A stretch of 64,000 nt of DNA, taken from a virus. Positions 29,038 through 36,545 of this stretch are shown one piece after another. The notes below the pieces were generated by a model. That model was not told the origin of the DNA. It saw nothing but the letters and a program-made list of their open reading frames with translations, and ran no database searches. Each line of letters opens with the position of its first letter. Position 1 is the stretch's first letter. Position numbers and translations under genes: made by a program. The stretch spans positions 120,745 to 184,744 of IMG/VR virus record IMGVR_UViG_3300033143_002031. One strand, given 5' to 3'.

Positions 29038-29379
29038 ATGGACAGCGAACTCAGGCGGCAACTGGAGGAGATCTTCGGAGGCGACATGAACGTCGCACCC
29101 GGGGGTACAGGAGCCGTGCTCATTCGCCCATCGAAGTTGTCTTTGGAGGTCGCGCAGCAAGCCGTCAGGGCTATGCCGATAGACGGGTTGTATCGAGACG
29201 TAGGTGCTGTCGCAGCGCGTGTCCTAGCGGATGAACTGGAGAGGCAGTCTCTCCGGCCGGCGGACTACGCTAACCTCCCCGATCTTCCGAAGGCAGCAGC
29301 GAAGCGAATCGTTGGCTACCTTCTCCGGTCGGAGGAGTTTGCTCGGTCGTTCTCCGAGCACCTGGCCGCGAGGGGATAG
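29038..29379 (+). CDS. hypothetical protein
   Basis: Preceded by TGGTATTAG; stop overlaps the portal GTG. Confidence 0.65.
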   Translation: MDSELRRQLEEIFGGDMNVAPGGTGAVLIRPSKLSLEVAQQAVRAMPIDGLYRDVGAVAARVLADELERQSLRPADYANLPDLPKAAAKRIVGYLLRSEEFARSFSEHLAARG

Positions 29380-31175
29380 TGGGCGCTGTACAGAATGTTG
29401 TTGATCGCCTGCGTGGTGCGTTTGTCTCGGATAAGGAACGGGGAGGGCAACTACTCGCCAAGGGCAGCACCTCTCCAACGTATCCGGACTCTGGGTACGA
29501 CCTGCTTCAAGCCTACGGCTACGATGCTCTGTCGGACTATCTCCGGTTGGAGCACGATCTCCTCAGTCGCTATGTCGACTACGAGGAGATGGACGACTAC
29601 CCCGAGGTCTCGTCGGCCATCGACATCTACGCGGACGACGCCTCACAGCCGGACACGCAACTCCAGCGCACCGTGTGGGTGTCCAGTCCGGACAAGACCC
29701 TTCAGGGCGTGCTCGACGATCTGTTCCATAAGCGGCTCCGCCTGGACGAGGAAATCTGGGAAATCGTGCGCTCCCTGGTGAAGTACGGGAACGACTACGA
29801 AGAGTTGCTCGTCAATCAGGATGGCGTGGTCGGCTTGAACTTCCTTCCGGCGCCGACTGTGCGCCGGGTGGAAGGCCCTCGTGGGGAACTGTACGGGTTC
29901 GTCCAGGACTTCAAAGGCCGGTTCGGCTACTCTCCGCAGGAGTTTCAGAAGATCCTAACCCAGCGCACGGACGCTATCCGTCAGGTCACGCAGCCGGGCG
30001 CCGCTCGACCCCCGGGCAACATGCTACAGCGCGTCTCTGCGCTGGAGCCTTGGGAGGTGTCGCACTTCCGCTTGCGCGGGAAGCACCGCCGGAGCGTGTA
30101 CGGCTACTCGGTCCTCGAATCGTCACGGTGGATATGGAAGCGGCTCATGCTGCTCGAAGATGCCGCGATGATTTATCGACTCCAGCGAGCGCCCGAGCGC
30201 TTCGCCTTCTATGTCGACGTCGGCGATCTACCTCCGGCCGAGGCGTTGGCGTTCGTCAACAAGATCCGGCAGCAGCACAAGAAGAAGCGGTTCGTCAACC
30301 CGTCTACCGGCAAACTCGATATGAAATTCGAGCCGCTGTCCCAGGATGACGACTTCTGGGTTCCGGTGCGTAAGGGTGTGGAGGGTACGCGGATCGAGGT
30401 ACTCGGCGGCCCGTCCTGGCAGCACATGGACGACGTAGAGTATTTCCAGACGAAGCTGTTCACCGCAATGAAGGTGCCCAAGGCGTACCTGGCTCAGGAC
30501 GACAACACGGCAAGAGCGGTCCTCTCTAGCGAGGATGTCCGGTTCGCACGGTCTGTCTTGCGAGTCCAGCGGGAGGTCCGCAACGGTCTTCGCAAGGTGG
30601 CCCGGACGCACCTGGCGGCGCTCAATATCGACCCCTACGCGAGCGACTACACCATCCACATGACCGTGCCTTCGGCCATCTTCGAGTTGGCTCAGTTGGA
30701 GGTACGGAACGCGCGGGCTGACTTGGCTTCGCGTATGCGCGAGCATGTCTCGCTGCGGTGGGTGTTGGAGAACATCTACCAGCTATCGGACGAGGACATC
30801 AAACTCATCATTCAAGAGCGGTCCGAGGATGTGATCCGAGAGGGCAAGGCTCAGGCCGAGGTCGAGAAGATGAGCGCCATGGCGCAGGCTTCGGTAGAGC
30901 AGGCATCGGGTGGAGGTGGAGGTGGTGGCGGTGGCGTGGAGTCGCTCGCAGCCCCTTCGGGTATGCGGAGGCTCGAACGCAAGATCGCTGCGATACCCCG
31001 TCAGTTGCGTGGGGCTATCACCGAGAAGGAGCTTCTAAGAGGGAATCGCGAGGCCGAGAAGCGGGCCGAGGGAAAGTTGGACAGCATCCTCCGGTCGAAC
31101 AGTGCGAACAGCCAACGCTTGCGGGAGAGCGTGGCGCTTCTCCGAGAGGTCGTGGCAGCGGCGCATGGCCGCTGA
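29379..31175 (+). CDS. portal protein (T4 gp20-like)
   Basis: YEEMDDYPEVSSAIDIYADDA, YRLQRAPERFAFYVDVGDLP, EDFW-like DDDFWVPVR...GTRIEVL, DVEYFQTKLFTAMKVPKAYL, EDVRF. Confidence 0.92.
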   Translation: MGAVQNVVDRLRGAFVSDKERGGQLLAKGSTSPTYPDSGYDLLQAYGYDALSDYLRLEHDLLSRYVDYEEMDDYPEVSSAIDIYADDASQPDTQLQRTVWVSSPDKTLQGVLDDLFHKRLRLDEEIWEIVRSLVKYGNDYEELLVNQDGVVGLNFLPAPTVRRVEGPRGELYGFVQDFKGRFGYSPQEFQKILTQRTDAIRQVTQPGAARPPGNMLQRVSALEPWEVSHFRLRGKHRRSVYGYSVLESSRWIWKRLMLLEDAAMIYRLQRAPERFAFYVDVGDLPPAEALAFVNKIRQQHKKKRFVNPSTGKLDMKFEPLSQDDDFWVPVRKGVEGTRIEVLGGPSWQHMDDVEYFQTKLFTAMKVPKAYLAQDDNTARAVLSSEDVRFARSVLRVQREVRNGLRKVARTHLAALNIDPYASDYTIHMTVPSAIFELAQLEVRNARADLASRMREHVSLRWVLENIYQLSDEDIKLIIQERSEDVIREGKAQAEVEKMSAMAQASVEQASGGGGGGGGGVESLAAPSGMRRLERKIAAIPRQLRGAITEKELLRGNREAEKRAEGKLDSILRSNSANSQRLRESVALLREVVAAAHGR

Positions 31176-32118: not shown

Positions 32119-33030
32119 ATGACTTTGCTCAGGCACGCGGTGGTAATCACCTCCCTGGAGGAGGACTTCCGGCGCATTGGCCTCATCAAGGAAGATCACC
32201 CCGGCGAGGGAGAGGACGTCCTTGCGGAGTCCGAGTCCGAGGAGACCGACGAGTCCGATTACGACGTGGACTTCGACGACGACGAGGACGAGGCAATCTC
32301 CAAGGCCCGCCCCGACTCCGACGAGGCCGACGAGGCCGACGAGGCCGACGAGTCCGACGAGTCCGACGAGGATGTCGCTATGGCCGAGGCCGTTGCTTTC
32401 CACGAGAGTGCGAAGGCGATGTGGCAGGAGTTCGGTGAGGATGGCATCGAGACGATCGATCTCGACTCGGGGCAGATGTCCGCTCTGGAGGGCATGGGGG
32501 ATACCACCACGCTCCCCGGCGGTGTCATCGACGAGACCATCGACGCTGACGACGAGGACGAGGCCATCGACGAGGACGACGACGAGGATGAGGGCGAAGA
32601 CGCCCCCAACCCGTTCGAGTCCGTGTCCGAGGCCATGAGCGCCATCGAGGCCATCCTGGACGAGGACGCGCGGCCGACCGACTCTCTGGAGGAGGCCACC
32701 CCAGCGTTCGCCAACCTCGCGCTCATCTCGGAGAAGCTGTACGGTTTCTTCACCGAGACCGCCGAGGCTCAGGACGATGCCGAGTACGCGGAGATTGCCG
32801 AGGCGTACAAGAGCATCGCGCAGTACTCGGCAGCGATCGTGGACACGCTCAAGACCGAGAGTGCCGACACGATCAACTTCGAGGCCCTCACGGAGACGTT
32901 CCAGGACTACCTGGCGACGGTCCTCCAGGGCTTGGAGACCTTCGCCATCCTCCGGGAGGCCGATGAGGACGAGGACGAGGACGAGGACGACGGTGAGGAG
33001 CAGGACGAGGGCGATGAGGGAAACGGGTAA
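32119..33030 (+). CDS. highly acidic prohead core/scaffolding protein (303 aa)
   Basis: SD AGGAGG; very D/E-rich with 9-bp DEA coding repeats near 32319-32370; located before the protease as in T4-like head modules. Confidence 0.7.
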   Translation: MTLLRHAVVITSLEEDFRRIGLIKEDHPGEGEDVLAESESEETDESDYDVDFDDDEDEAISKARPDSDEADEADEADESDESDEDVAMAEAVAFHESAKAMWQEFGEDGIETIDLDSGQMSALEGMGDTTTLPGGVIDETIDADDEDEAIDEDDDEDEGEDAPNPFESVSEAMSAIEAILDEDARPTDSLEEATPAFANLALISEKLYGFFTETAEAQDDAEYAEIAEAYKSIAQYSAAIVDTLKTESADTINFEALTETFQDYLATVLQGLETFAILREADEDEDEDEDDGEEQDEGDEGNG

Positions 33031-33086
33031 GGCGACGACTCCGCGCGCTGGCCCTCCGTAAGGGGCGTACAACACGGCGTCGTCGC
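33018..33086 (+). promoter_or_regulatory. candidate -1 programmed frameshift signal
   Basis: G GGA AAC in the scaffold frame (33018-33024), 7-nt spacer, stem GCGACGAC 33032-33039 / GTCGTCGC 33079-33086. Confidence 0.72.
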
Positions 33087-33278
33087 ACAGCGTATTCCTC
33101 GGGGAGACGGGAAGTGGTAGGGATGGAGAAGAGTCCAGTGAAGCGTCAGACTCGAAGCGTAGGAGGATCGCGTTCGGGGCTGGATTTCACTGTCGACCTT
33201 CCCAAGACGAGCATACGGTCCGACGCCAGTCTGGACCGTGGGCCGTTCCGGTCCAACTTCCGCTGGAAGGTGTCATGA
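33018..33278 (+). CDS. -1 frame extension of the scaffold (Arg/Lys-rich, about 85 aa)
   Basis: Frame opens exactly at the slippery site (TGA 33015-33017 precedes it) and its TGA overlaps the protease ATG (ATGA 33275-33278). Absent from the ORF track. Confidence 0.7.
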   Translation, partial: GKRVRRRLRALALRKGRTTRRRRTAYSSGRREVVGMEKSPVKRQTRSVGGSRSGLDFTVDLPKTSIRSDASLDRGPFRSNFRWKVS

Positions 33279-34978
33279 TGGGACAATTGACTGCGACTTC
33301 CCCATCCACCGAGAACCAGTTGATCGACGAGCAGGTTCACCCCTGCAAGCTCGAACTGGTCGAGGGGGAAGGCGAGAAGAAGGGCCGCGTGTTTGCACGT
33401 GGGGAGTTCGGCCATGCGGTCAACCCCACAGCGAACGGACGCCGATACCGGCACAACATCTGGGAGAACAATTTCTCTCGCCTCCAGTCGAACCTGGAGT
33501 CCAAAAAGGTGCTGGGCGAACTCGACCACCCCACGGATGGGCGCACGGCACTGCAACGCGCTTCGCACGTTATCACCGGCCTCCGCTTGGAGGACGACAA
33601 GGTGATGGGTGAGGCCGAGATCCTCGACACGGCCAAGGGCCGAGACCTGAAGGCGATCCTCGCGGCGGGTGTTCCGGTGGGCATCAGTTCCCGTGGTTTC
33701 GGGAGCACCAAGCCGGGCAAGGACGGCATCGAGGAAGTCCAGGAGGACTACAAACTCGTCACCTTCGATTTCGTGGCTGAACCAGCCGACCCGTCGGCCT
33801 ATCCCGAGGTGGTCTTCGAGAGCGCCGAAGAGGGCGCGGCCATGATGTTCGAGGGTGTGGCCTTCGAGACGGCCGAGCCGGAAGGTGCTTCTGAGGGTGA
33901 GGACGAGGGCGATGACGAAAACGTCGCTCCTGTCGTAGGTTCAGCACCTCCGGGCGAGGCAGAGATGGCCAAGCGCTTCGGAGAGAAGGTGGCTGCCGAG
34001 GCTGCCGCTGCGCCGAAGTCCGCCGAGGCAGAGATGGCCGCGCGGTTCGCCGCGAAGGTTCTGTCCGACGCCGAGGGAAACGATGTCTCGGTCGAAGACC
34101 TCCGGCAGGAGTTTGCGGACCAGATCGTAGATCGTATCGCTGCCCTCCGGGGTGACGTCGAGAAGCAGGTTCGCGCTGAGATGGCAGCGGACCCCGCAGT
34201 TGCAGGTGCGAGAGCGGCCTTGGAAGACGTGCAGCGGGCGTTGCTCCCGTTCGCCCTGACCGAGGATGCCCACGCGCTGGTCGCAGAGCGCGACGATGAG
34301 ATACACGCGCTCCGGTCCAAGCTCGAAGAGGTGGAGCAGACGATCGAGCAGCACGAGACGCTGATCGAAACGCTCACCGAGGCGGCTCGGGAGGCAGGCT
34401 ACAGGTACCACCTGGAGTGCTTGCTCCATGAGGATGACGCAGAGATCGAGCGGCTTCGCGTGATCGTTGGGGATGTCTCGCAGTACGACTCCCCGGATGC
34501 GCTTCGCACTCGTGTCGAAGAGGCGTATCAGGAGATGCAGACGTTCCGTATCGAAGAGGAGCGTGTGCAGCAACAACGGTCGGAGGAATCTGATCGTCTA
34601 CGCGGCAAGAACCAGGCATTGGCGGAGGGGCTGGAGAAAGCCCTCGTCGCCAACCGGGACCTGGCTCTACAGGTCTACGCATCCAAGAGGTTGCAAACTC
34701 ACCCTCAAGGTGCGAAGATCCTCCGCATGCTCGAACGATCAGGGCTTCAGTCCCAGGAGCAAGTGGATGCACTGATCGAGGACTTCCGTGAGCCGAAGCG
34801 CGACGCGGACGACCTCGAAGCAGTGCGTGCTCGCGTTCGTGCTCAACTGCATGGTGGGGCGGAGTATCTCGAAGAAGACACGCAACCCTCTGGGCCGCGT
34901 GGTAGTGGATCGAAGGACTACAATGGTCTCGGAGCGTCCCTGGCTGACTTGAAACACCTGGCAGGACTGCGAGACTGA
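33275..34978 (+). CDS. prohead protease (T4 gp21-like) fused to a coiled-coil scaffold
   Basis: NGRRY, LGELDHP, ASHVIT, GISSRGFGS, FDFVAEPA, then about 380 aa of acidic coiled coil. Confidence 0.9.
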   Translation: MMGQLTATSPSTENQLIDEQVHPCKLELVEGEGEKKGRVFARGEFGHAVNPTANGRRYRHNIWENNFSRLQSNLESKKVLGELDHPTDGRTALQRASHVITGLRLEDDKVMGEAEILDTAKGRDLKAILAAGVPVGISSRGFGSTKPGKDGIEEVQEDYKLVTFDFVAEPADPSAYPEVVFESAEEGAAMMFEGVAFETAEPEGASEGEDEGDDENVAPVVGSAPPGEAEMAKRFGEKVAAEAAAAPKSAEAEMAARFAAKVLSDAEGNDVSVEDLRQEFADQIVDRIAALRGDVEKQVRAEMAADPAVAGARAALEDVQRALLPFALTEDAHALVAERDDEIHALRSKLEEVEQTIEQHETLIETLTEAAREAGYRYHLECLLHEDDAEIERLRVIVGDVSQYDSPDALRTRVEEAYQEMQTFRIEEERVQQQRSEESDRLRGKNQALAEGLEKALVANRDLALQVYASKRLQTHPQGAKILRMLERSGLQSQEQVDALIEDFREPKRDADDLEAVRARVRAQLHGGAEYLEEDTQPSGPRGSGSKDYNGLGASLADLKHLAGLRD

Positions 34979-35036: not shown

Positions 35037-36545
35037 GTGGAAGCTCGACAGATGCTTCAGGAAGAGGGTCGTCGAACGATCGCCGACCAGAGCTACGTCG
35101 GGGCCTTGATCCGGAAGTGGGGAGACTTCCTGGAGGGCCTCGCCGATCGATCCGAGCAGGACAGGTACATCCTCGGATGCACCGCCATGCTCATGGAGAA
35201 CGAGAGCCTCTGGCTCCAGTCTCTCACGGAGGAGACGCGCACGGTGAACGTCGGTTCGTTCACCAAGTTCATCTTCCCCGTTTTGAGGCGAGTTTTCCCG
35301 AACCTCATCGCCAACGAGATCGTCTCGGTCCAGCCGATGACGGCCCCGATCGGTGCTGTCTTCTTCCTCGACTACGTGTACGGTTCGACCAAGGGCGGCA
35401 CGACCGAGGGGAACGTGTTCCCACGTGACTTCGATCGTGACTACTCCAGCGAGTACGTCAACGGCGAGTCGATGGTGACCGGCGATGGCGTCAACTTCGG
35501 TGGTGGTGGTGGTGCGCTCGACCTCACCGGGACCCTCGCGTGGACCCCGGTTCGGCCCCTCGATGCTGCTCGTGAGTTCTCGTGCGCCATCCGGGAGGTT
35601 TCGGCGGCGGACGGGTCGACCGTGCAGGAGGCCGTCGACGATGGGGCGGGCGGCTTCACGTTCACCCCGGCCGGTGGACTCACTTCAGGCTCGATCAACT
35701 ACGCGAACGGCGCGGTGACTGGGTTCCAGTTCCAGAACATCCCCGCCCTCGGGAACCAGGTCAAGGCGTACTACTACTTCGACGGGGAACTCAACACCAA
35801 GGTTCCCGAGATCAAGCTCGACATCAAGAAGGCGCCGGTCGAGGCCAAGCCGCGTCGACTCAAGGCCCTGTGGTCGAGCGAGGCGGCGGAAGACCTCCGT
35901 GCGTTCCACGGTCTCGACGCCGAGACCGAGATCGTGTCGATCATCGCTCAGGAGATCGCGCTGGAGATCGACCGCGAGATCATCAACGACCTCTTCCTGG
36001 CTTCGACGGGGACCACCGGCACGTTCGACCGCATCCCGCCCGGTGGCATCTCGGAGATCGACCACATCCGAGCGCTGATCACGCAGATCAGCACCGTCTC
36101 GAACCTCATCCACAAGAAAACCCTCCGCGCCCCGGCGAACTGGATCATCACGAGCCCCGAAATCTCGGCGCTCCTGACCCAGTTGACCACGCACGGCGAC
36201 TTCAAGCCGATCTGGTCGTCGGACATGAACCCGAACTCGCCGACCGACGTACCTCGGCCGCGCACGGCGCATGGGCAGTTCTCGATCTACAAGACCGGGA
36301 CGCTCATGAACAAGTGGGTCGTCTACGAAGATCCCTTCTTCACGACCAACAAGATGATGGTCGGTCTGAAGGGCGGCAGCTTCCTGGAGTCCGGCTACTG
36401 CTGGGCGCCCTACGTGCCCCTCCAGGTCACGCCGACCTTCCTCGATCCGAGCGACTTCAGCTTCCGCAAGGGCCTCCGGACCCGCTACGCGAAGAAGCTG
36501 CTTCGCCCGGACTTCTACGGCCAGTTGACGATCAACAACCTGTAG
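35037..36545 (+). CDS. major capsid protein (T4 gp23-like)
   Basis: PVLRRVFPNLIANEIVSVQPMTAPIG, RRLKALWSSEAAEDLRAFHGLDAETEI, YCWAPYVPL, GLRTRYA; SD AAGGAGG. Confidence 0.95.
   Translation: MEARQMLQEEGRRTIADQSYVGALIRKWGDFLEGLADRSEQDRYILGCTAMLMENESLWLQSLTEETRTVNVGSFTKFIFPVLRRVFPNLIANEIVSVQPMTAPIGAVFFLDYVYGSTKGGTTEGNVFPRDFDRDYSSEYVNGESMVTGDGVNFGGGGGALDLTGTLAWTPVRPLDAAREFSCAIREVSAADGSTVQEAVDDGAGGFTFTPAGGLTSGSINYANGAVTGFQFQNIPALGNQVKAYYYFDGELNTKVPEIKLDIKKAPVEAKPRRLKALWSSEAAEDLRAFHGLDAETEIVSIIAQEIALEIDREIINDLFLASTGTTGTFDRIPPGGISEIDHIRALITQISTVSNLIHKKTLRAPANWIITSPEISALLTQLTTHGDFKPIWSSDMNPNSPTDVPRPRTAHGQFSIYKTGTLMNKWVVYEDPFFTTNKMMVGLKGGSFLESGYCWAPYVPLQVTPTFLDPSDFSFRKGLRTRYAKKLLRPDFYGQLTINNL

Follow-up and report, generated by a model that had tools for sequence, protein, structure and literature searches.

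Head module of the window

The window is the whole stretch of DNA that was analysed, 64,000 nucleotides with a GC content of about 62%. It comes from a 184.7-kb IMG/VR virus record (IMGVR_UViG_3300033143_002031) and is a metagenome assembly. Within it lies a head module with the T4-type order: portal gene, a 297-aa ORF, an acidic ORF, a gap of about 244 nt, the gene for a protease/coiled-coil protein, and the major capsid gene. The portal gene (29379-31175, plus strand) is identified by a family match to Portal_T4, and the major capsid protein (35037-36545) is of the gp23 type (Gp23). The 297-aa ORF lies between the portal gene and the acidic ORF of 303 aa. The protease gene (33278-34978, plus strand; 567 aa when read from ATG 33275) encodes a prohead protease of the T4 gp21 type (Peptidase_S77) joined to a long coiled-coil, scaffold-like C-terminal half. 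Apart from the -1 frame described below, no notable ORF is present in the gap (33031-33274). The tail chaperone and tape-measure region of the window is near 47-49 kb, apart from the frameshift site in the head module.

The phage has no close cultured relative. Searches of 50,697 phage records with the region (blastn) and with the tail peptide described below (tblastn) returned no relative, and the nearest protease in these records, from an unannotated 595-kb uncultured phage, is 43% identical. No Rfam family matched the frameshift region, and no terminator or promoter consensus was found in 32700-33500.

The acidic gene (32119-33030, plus strand, frame 0) encodes a D/E-rich protein of 303 aa and is flanked by the portal gene, of T4 type, on one side and by the gene for the prohead protease on the other. 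In T4, genes 67 and 68 sit between portal gene 20 and protease gene 21, and the acidic gene corresponds to them by position. T4 gp21 cleaves core and internal proteins at L-x-E-type sites. The N-terminal leader of the acidic protein carries an L-x-E motif, S-L-E-E, at codons 12-15, and the leader motif T/S-L-x-E...I/L-G-L/I is common to nearly all of the clade's upstream proteins listed. S-L-T-E is found in the corresponding N-terminal region of this phage's capsid protein.

Pfam and PHROG searches with the window's acidic protein and six homologues gave nothing but noise at E <= 1, T4 families included, and the homologues of 276-310 aa are all unnamed. The preliminary description had called this protein an acidic scaffold. 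A D/E-rich gene before the protease is indeed present; scaffold, however, is a positional label with no family match. In view of the gene's position and the leader, head-core protein is the better name. The likelier main scaffold is the C-terminal, coiled-coil half of the protease protein of 567 aa.

Frameshift signals at the end of the acidic gene

The 3' end of the acidic gene reads GAG GGA AAC GGG TAA and contains the slippery heptamer G_GGA_AAC (33018-33024, plus strand) in the X_XXY_YYZ phase, (33018-32119) mod 3 being 2. It is followed by a 7-nt spacer (33025-33031, plus strand) that includes the 0-frame stop TAA (33028-33030), one codon past the heptamer. A nearby 0-frame stop is a known enhancer of slipping. 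On the other side, 7 nt 5' of the heptamer, lies a Shine-Dalgarno-like GAGG (33007-33010, plus strand), a possible upstream stimulator. The dnaX frameshift has an upstream Shine-Dalgarno stimulator; the GAGG may act like it and may equally be a by-product of GA-rich codons, so that the resemblance is only suggestive.

The probable frameshift stimulator is a 55-nt stem-loop (33032-33086, plus strand), in which a perfect basal stem of 8 bp (GCGACGAC/GUCGUCGC) surrounds an inner hairpin. The two arms of the basal stem, GCGACGAC (33032-33039) and GTCGTCGC (33079-33086), are exact reverse complements of each other, and the smaller hairpin between them pairs GCCCU with GGGGC. Hairpins were scored as structures starting 5-9 nt after the heptamer and were ranked against random positions of the same locus. 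On this scale the window's hairpin (-28.2 kcal/mol, 7-nt spacer) falls in the best 3.4%. For the window alone, a 113-nt fold with the heptamer included did not exceed shuffled sequences in stability (z = +0.49).

A TGA at 33015-33017 closes the -1 frame immediately before the heptamer, and with 0 open codons upstream the frame begins precisely there. The extension runs for 86 codons plus TGA (33018-33278, plus strand), and its stop (33276-33278) overlaps both ATG 33275 and ATG 33278 of the protease gene. The predicted trans-frame product of about 386 aa would consist of 302 residues from frame 0 and 84 from frame -1, with the junction ...D-E-G-N-R-V-R-R.... The preliminary description had reported a canonical in-phase heptamer at the end of the acidic gene, a perfect 8-bp stem around a smaller hairpin 7 nt past it, and a -1 frame that is open from the heptamer for 86 codons through an otherwise empty gap and stops in an overlap with the protease start. 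Direct reading of the sequence bears out all three.

Relatives carrying the arrangement

Scans with the protease yielded 2 loci, 6 metagenome loci, 80 IMG/VR loci (of 338 relatives there) and 5 loci from genome bins, and identity look-ups added ENA, JGI and Logan contigs. The comparison rests on 27 sequence types, made up of 25 from the main junction survey together with L004 and L096. These types come from independent samples in four sources (IMG/VR, JGI metagenomes, ENA and Logan). Their protease N-domains are from 85% down to about 45% identical to that of the window, and the GC content of the loci ranges from 43 to 65%. L096, an ENA locus, was found through its acidic protein rather than its protease and shows the same arrangement.

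A maximum-likelihood tree was built from 64 rows of the protease N-domain. It places all loci with the arrangement in one 32-row clade with 100/100 support. The sister clade, also of 32 rows, has none. L034 is the only member of the clade that was scored as lacking the site; its locus is cut off upstream, and its tail is the same as that of L037.

Conservation of the heptamer and hairpin

Conservation of the heptamer and of the stem in related phages had been named in the preliminary description as something to look for. The heptamer is found throughout: the gene directly before the protease carries G_GGA_AAC or G_GGA_AAA in phase in 27/27 distinct sequence types. One further lineage (L099) has G_GGA_AAG, the heptamer of lambda, followed by one codon and a stop, which is the same architecture. 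The 0-frame stop lies 0-1 codons past the heptamer in every lineage except L032/L033, where the distance is 15 codons. The proteins that bear the heptamer are highly diverse and include acidic D/E tails, mixed acidic/basic bodies, and ends of the type ...LIHKSLDRIG....

The heptamer is kept more strictly than the encoded amino acids would demand. Of the Gly codons in these loci, GGA is the least used (212/1501, 14%), yet the heptamer Gly is GGA in every one of the 27 types. The codon preceding it always ends in G, though it encodes E, S, A or L. An internal control is provided by the portal gene of the window, in which an in-phase G_GGA_AAG (31070) is not kept in relatives; these encode E-G-K as GAA GGG AAG, GAA GGC AAG or GAG GGG AAG, and CTG GGC AAA is also seen. 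Within the window GGGAAAV is rarer than expected (11 vs 24.2 +/- 5.05). The upstream GAGG is placed at exactly -11 in 11/26 sequence types, all in groups A and C, and is absent in group B. In E. coli, G_GGA_AAC is less slip-prone than G_GGA_AAG (Atkins et al. 2016, PMC5009743).

The hairpin is kept in most types. In about 18/24 a hairpin of 49-64 nt, with -20 to -38 kcal/mol, begins at a distance of 5-9 nt from the heptamer on its 3' side, and against random positions within their own loci these hairpins rank in the best 0-4%. The stem sequences are unrelated between clades (GCGACGAC, GCGGCG, CCGCUUAUCA, AUCGGUU and GUCGUCUCGGCG), and within group A compensatory changes are seen in 7/18 consensus pairs. 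Group B (L007, L009, L022 and L028) has weak downstream structure only. L037 has a compact 27-nt hairpin.

The tail peptide

Taken alone, the window offers weak evidence for a frameshift. The chance of an 84-codon open frame at 62% GC is about 8%, as estimated from base composition. Across the relatives, the pattern is far beyond chance. All 27 sequence types, loci of 43-52% GC among them, have an open -1 frame of 57-91 codons that reaches the protease start.

The -1 frame is under coding constraint, also upstream of the internal ATG 33123. In three clades, substitutions in the extension are most frequent at third positions of -1 frame codons, less so at first and least at second positions. 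Variable columns at codon positions 1, 2 and 3 were counted in alignments made on nucleotides only: group A has 37/32/69 of about 78 (p = 7e-10), group B 35/28/50 (p = 1.5e-5) and group C 47/34/61 (p = 6e-6). Upstream of Met 33123 the coding pattern is the same, with 16/10/29 variable columns of 32 (p = 6e-6).

Two short motifs are conserved in the tail. The first is the core SGR.E..G.E, which in the window reads RR-T-A-Y-S-S-G-R-R-E-V-V-G-M-E (33081-33128, plus strand) and lies 5' of and across ATG 33123. In the window, the tail can contain this core only by way of a ribosomal slip. The second is the C-terminal end P-F-x-S-x-F-R-W, in the window P-F-R-S-N-F-R-W (33243-33266, plus strand), with an invariant W83. 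In 30 tails S28, G29, R30, G35 and E37 are invariant, and the mean column identity is 37%. The third residue after the slip is usually Arg, encoded by CGN after ...AAC and by AGG/AGA after ...AAA in 3/4 AAA types; it is Leu where the 0-frame stop directly follows the heptamer. The tail is basic and is predicted to be intrinsically disordered; AlphaFold2 with 30 homologues gave a pLDDT of 58 and a pTM of 0.12.

The codons after P-F-R-S-N-F-R-W double as the ribosome-binding site (AGGT type) from which the protease gene is served, and conservation at the 3' end of the tail is therefore partly dual-purpose. AGG is found 5-8 nt before the protease ATG in most lineages listed. A TGATG or TAATG stop/start overlap is also present in about half of the sequence types listed. 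Since many relatives share this overlap, the comparison favours ATG 33278 over ATG 33275 as the probable start of the protease.

Other forms of the tail module

A word-indexed protein search with the 86-aa tail gave no match, and an ESM Atlas search gave sub-threshold matches only (0.84). A profile of 30 tails, run against 1.84 billion proteins, matched 51 cluster representatives, of which 17 reached E <= 1e-10. Most of the 51 are ORFs of 37-93 aa, started by gene callers at any available start codon.

Some lineages carry the tail in other ways. Four members of the clade, L019-L021 and L023, keep it in the -1 frame without G_GGA_AAN. L023 carries G_GGG_GGC; the genes of L019-L021 end ...CGC CCT ACC AAG TAG, with no canonical heptamer and no slip site identified. 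L097 also has the tail without a canonical heptamer, together with an ATG 24 nt past the upstream stop. At least in L019-L021 and L097, there is thus another route to the tail. In L098 a stand-alone gene encodes the tail; it follows the acidic gene after a 76-nt spacer, is shifted to the +1 frame, includes the conserved core and has GGAGG 5 nt before its own ATG. In L100 and L101 the tail core (hhalign probability 95-96%) is found in frame at the C-terminus of proteins of 217 aa and 202 aa directly before the protease.

As judged by these gene arrangements, the tail is a real, portable protein module that is attached by frameshift, attached in frame, or free. That the tail can work unfused is shown by L098, where it stands alone. 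Whatever its attachment, the module always lies directly before the protease gene.

Alternative explanations

The likeliest alternative treats the downstream frame as a small gene in its own right, with translation beginning at ATG 33123 (51 aa, the case raised in the preliminary description) or at GTG 33114 (54 aa), and takes the heptamer and the open frame in 33018-33113 as incidental. Both start codons are preceded by purine-rich sequence in the window, L003 has GGAGGAG 6 nt before its ATG, the module is called as an ORF of 37-93 aa in many metagenomes, and L098 carries a real stand-alone version with its own GGAGG site. However, the invariant core RRTAY.SGR.E..G lies upstream of and across the Met and is included in every stand-alone or called version. 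The window's Met 36 (ATG 33123) is replaced by V, A, Y or F in relatives, and in three of these (L007, L009 and L040) the extension lacks ATG, GTG and TTG altogether. The third-position pattern of substitutions also holds 5' of the Met. With the upstream coding constraint and the unconserved Met against it, an independent 51-aa gene is improbable. Internal initiation at ATG 33123 or GTG 33114 may occur in addition to the slip.

A second alternative takes the gap of about 245 nt as non-coding, with the stem-loop serving in regulation or processing (an attenuator, an RNase site or an mRNA stabiliser) and the open -1 frame as a by-product of high GC. The stem-loop is strong, an open frame of this length has the estimated chance given above, and the ribosome-binding site of the protease explains part of the conservation at the 3' end. 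Against this stand the codon-position periodicity of the -1 frame in three clades, its openness in all 27 types down to the loci of 43-52% GC, and peptide motifs that are invariant where mean column identity is only 37%. The module is found in frame or stand-alone elsewhere, and neither a terminator-like site nor an Rfam family was found here. A non-coding gap is thus very improbable.

A frame break introduced by an assembly or sequencing indel into one continuous ORF is barely credible: the contig does come from a metagenome assembly and in-frame fused versions exist in other lineages, but the same break at the same heptamer, followed by a 0-frame stop, recurs in 27 types from independent samples in four sources, and GGGAAA is no long homopolymer run.

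Other mechanisms were rejected. Transcriptional slippage would have to act on runs of three G and three A, which are too short. Stop-codon readthrough does not fit a tail in a different frame, and termination-reinitiation does not fit the lack of a conserved start codon near the 0-frame stop. The G-x-E of the tail was considered as a T4-type protease site and is a poor fit, as the sites of this phage look like L-x-E (S-L-T-E in the capsid protein and S-L-E-E in the leader).

Comparison with known systems

In tailed phages, the familiar cases of programmed frameshifting are the tail chaperone pair and a small number of capsid proteins. The lambda-type frameshift of the tail assembly chaperone, gpG/gpGT, was reportedly described by Xu, Hendrix and Duda in 2004. 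The present site is like it in having a canonical -1 slip on G_GGA_AAN, G_GGA_AAG in the case of lambda, close to where a structural gene ends, a presumed minor isoform that is extended at the C-terminus, and conservation across very divergent phages. Gene family and assembly pathway are not those of lambda. The site belongs to the head module, with the portal on one side and the prohead protease on the other, and does not lie between tail tube and tape measure; in place of a tape-measure-binding domain, the extension is a short tail that is basic and disordered.

The acidic gene resembles T4 67 and 68 in lying between the portal and prohead protease genes, and it resembles gp67/gp68 and the internal proteins IPI-III in its acidic body, a basic tail as in internal proteins, and the L-x-E motif of the leader. 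In contrast to this likeness, no Pfam or PHROG similarity to the T4 families was detected. To our knowledge, no frameshift is known in T4 67 or 68, and none of the titles returned by text searches pointed to a case.

The Gag-Pol proteins of retroviruses and totiviruses offer another parallel, where a fixed slip rate sets the ratio of plain to extended forms of a co-assembling structural protein. Here the extension is a peptide of 84 residues rather than an enzyme, and the system is bacterial.

Among phages, the slip in the chaperones of T4-like phages is reportedly replaced by separate or fused genes in some cases (Vladimirov et al. 2022, cited in PMC10885494). Some of the lineages described here likewise replace the slip by separate or fused genes. 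The heptamer GGGAAAC co-occurs with the word 'frameshift' in papers on phiCbK, on KL1/AH2 and on a Microbacterium phage, and in the archaeal virus HCTV-1 it serves for the g-t shift (Atkins et al. 2016, PMC5009743). Reported frameshifts in capsid proteins include T7 10A/10B, Lactobacillus phage A2 gp5A/5B and Listeria phage PSA (+1) (references in PMC5221750). Like those, the present system would produce a short and a long head protein by recoding at the end of a gene. In T7, A2 and PSA, however, the major capsid protein is extended and the long form is on the shell, whereas here an internal core or scaffold-like protein is recoded and the extension ends at the protease start.

The accessible text of the 2016 recoding review (PMC5009743) mentions neither 'scaffold' nor 'prohead', and 'scaffold' is not mentioned in the accessible text of the PRFect paper. 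Among the titles returned for frameshifting with 'prohead core', 'scaffolding protein' or 'T4-like', none pointed to such a case. The mechanism is a textbook one, and the context of a head-core gene appears to be new.

Proposed mechanism and significance

A tandem -1 slip of the canonical kind, giving a 303-aa form and a form of about 386 aa, is the best explanation of the locus, with a probability of about 0.88 on the comparative sequence evidence. The programmed -1 shift proposed in the preliminary description, with a long isoform that joins an acidic body to a basic tail, is supported by the conserved heptamer, its spacing, the downstream hairpin, the open frame and the tail peptide. The frameshift site is very probably real and ancient, and its signal is kept through a deep uncultured clade of large T4-like phages.

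In the proposed mechanism, a ribosome at G_GGA_AAC would hold tRNA-Gly in the P site and tRNA-Asn in the A site, with the stop one codon ahead in frame 0 and a stable stem-loop 7 nt downstream. A fraction of ribosomes would then slip back by one base (GGA to GGG, AAC to AAA), read 84 more codons in the -1 frame and end at the TGA that overlaps the protease start. We infer the slip, its efficiency and the minor status of the long form. The disordered basic tail would anchor some of the acidic core protein to a different component of the head. The first candidate for this partner is the protease/scaffold protein, because the tail module always directly precedes its gene. Binding of the tail to DNA, portal or coat is possible, and a role at a special vertex through such binding is speculation.

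A broader and rather doubtful reading is that the slip is an ancient control of head assembly. With the tail module always next to the protease gene and its stop overlapping the protease start, the slip rate would set both the amount of tail-bearing core protein and the delivery of ribosomes to the start of the protease/scaffold gene, with SGR.E..G.E as a possible docking or pseudo-substrate site for the protease.

Gene callers miss the frameshift signal and either leave a gap or call a truncated small ORF, and the site would provide a corrected annotation for many metagenomic phage genomes. The heptamer and hairpin would also provide a compact, testable element from high-GC phages. The frameshift-fused, in-frame-fused and free forms make up a natural series of one module, in which it may be asked why a head core would have a fixed ratio of two isoforms. 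If the reading as a control of head assembly is true, the slip would be a new kind of stoichiometry device for the phage prohead core.

Relatives without the canonical slip heptamer

A sub-clade of relatives carries the tail without the G_GGA_AAN heptamer (L019:2560-2660, L020:2720-2800 and L021:2690-2760), and the same is seen in L097:1387-1460. In all of these loci, the -1 frame still encodes the conserved tail. The upstream gene ends in ...CGC CCT ACC AAG TAG in L019-L021 and in ...AAG AAG TAG in L097, and an X_XXY_YYZ heptamer is absent from this end in all of them. L023, of the same protease clade as L019-L021, has G_GGG_GGC at the site. In the heptamer-less sub-clade, the tail could be reached by near-cognate initiation or by a slip, either in the P site on C_CCT or at the AAG preceding the stop.

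The tail module is also found outside the -1 frame. In L098 (1424-1722), it is a stand-alone gene of 73 amino acids with its own GGAGG site. In L100 (517-1170) and L101 (2501-3109), it is the in-frame C-terminus of proteins of 217 and 202 amino acids, respectively, each adjoining the protease on its 5' side. The L101 module follows an unrelated domain, which has a repeated segment in common with the preceding 501-amino-acid gene.

Neighboring genes and domains

The acidic head-core protein begins with an N-terminal leader (window 32119-32190; M-T-L-L-R-H-A-V-V-I-T-S-L-E-E-D-F-R-R-I-G-L-I). The pattern T/S-L-x-E...I/L-G-L/I is common to nearly all listed homologues and resembles a T4-type leader, either for capsid targeting or for cleavage by the protease. 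In group C, a clade of relatives with the heptamer and tail, the upstream proteins possess a zinc-ribbon-like insert, C-P-K-C...C..C, located C-terminal to the leader (L035:1813-2802; also L039, L040, L041, and L048). This insert matches Pfam DZR below the cut-off (E = 0.009) and is not present in the acidic protein of the window.

The prohead protease (window 33275-34978) is fused to a coiled-coil, scaffold-like C-terminal half of ~350 amino acids. A separate gp22-like gene is absent from the interval between this protease/scaffold gene and the capsid gene of the window. Because many relatives have a TGATG or TAATG stop/start overlap before the protease, the sequence suggests that the true start is ATG 33278 rather than ATG 33275. 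In one relative, on the contig that carries P0008 (ENA ERZ23498361), the first gene called downstream of the acidic gene is not the protease but one on the opposite strand, at a distance of ~1 kb. An insertion may separate the core gene from the protease gene on this contig.

Other slippery words in the window

The portal gene contains an in-phase G_GGA_AAG (31070-31076), 100 nt 5' of its stop, and this heptamer is followed by 40 open codons in the -1 frame. It is not conserved among relatives and is therefore probably not a recoding site. Across the whole window, GGGAAA(A/C/G) occurs 11 times, versus 24.2 +/- 5.05 expected from dinucleotide shuffles, a deficit that is consistent with avoidance of the slippery word.
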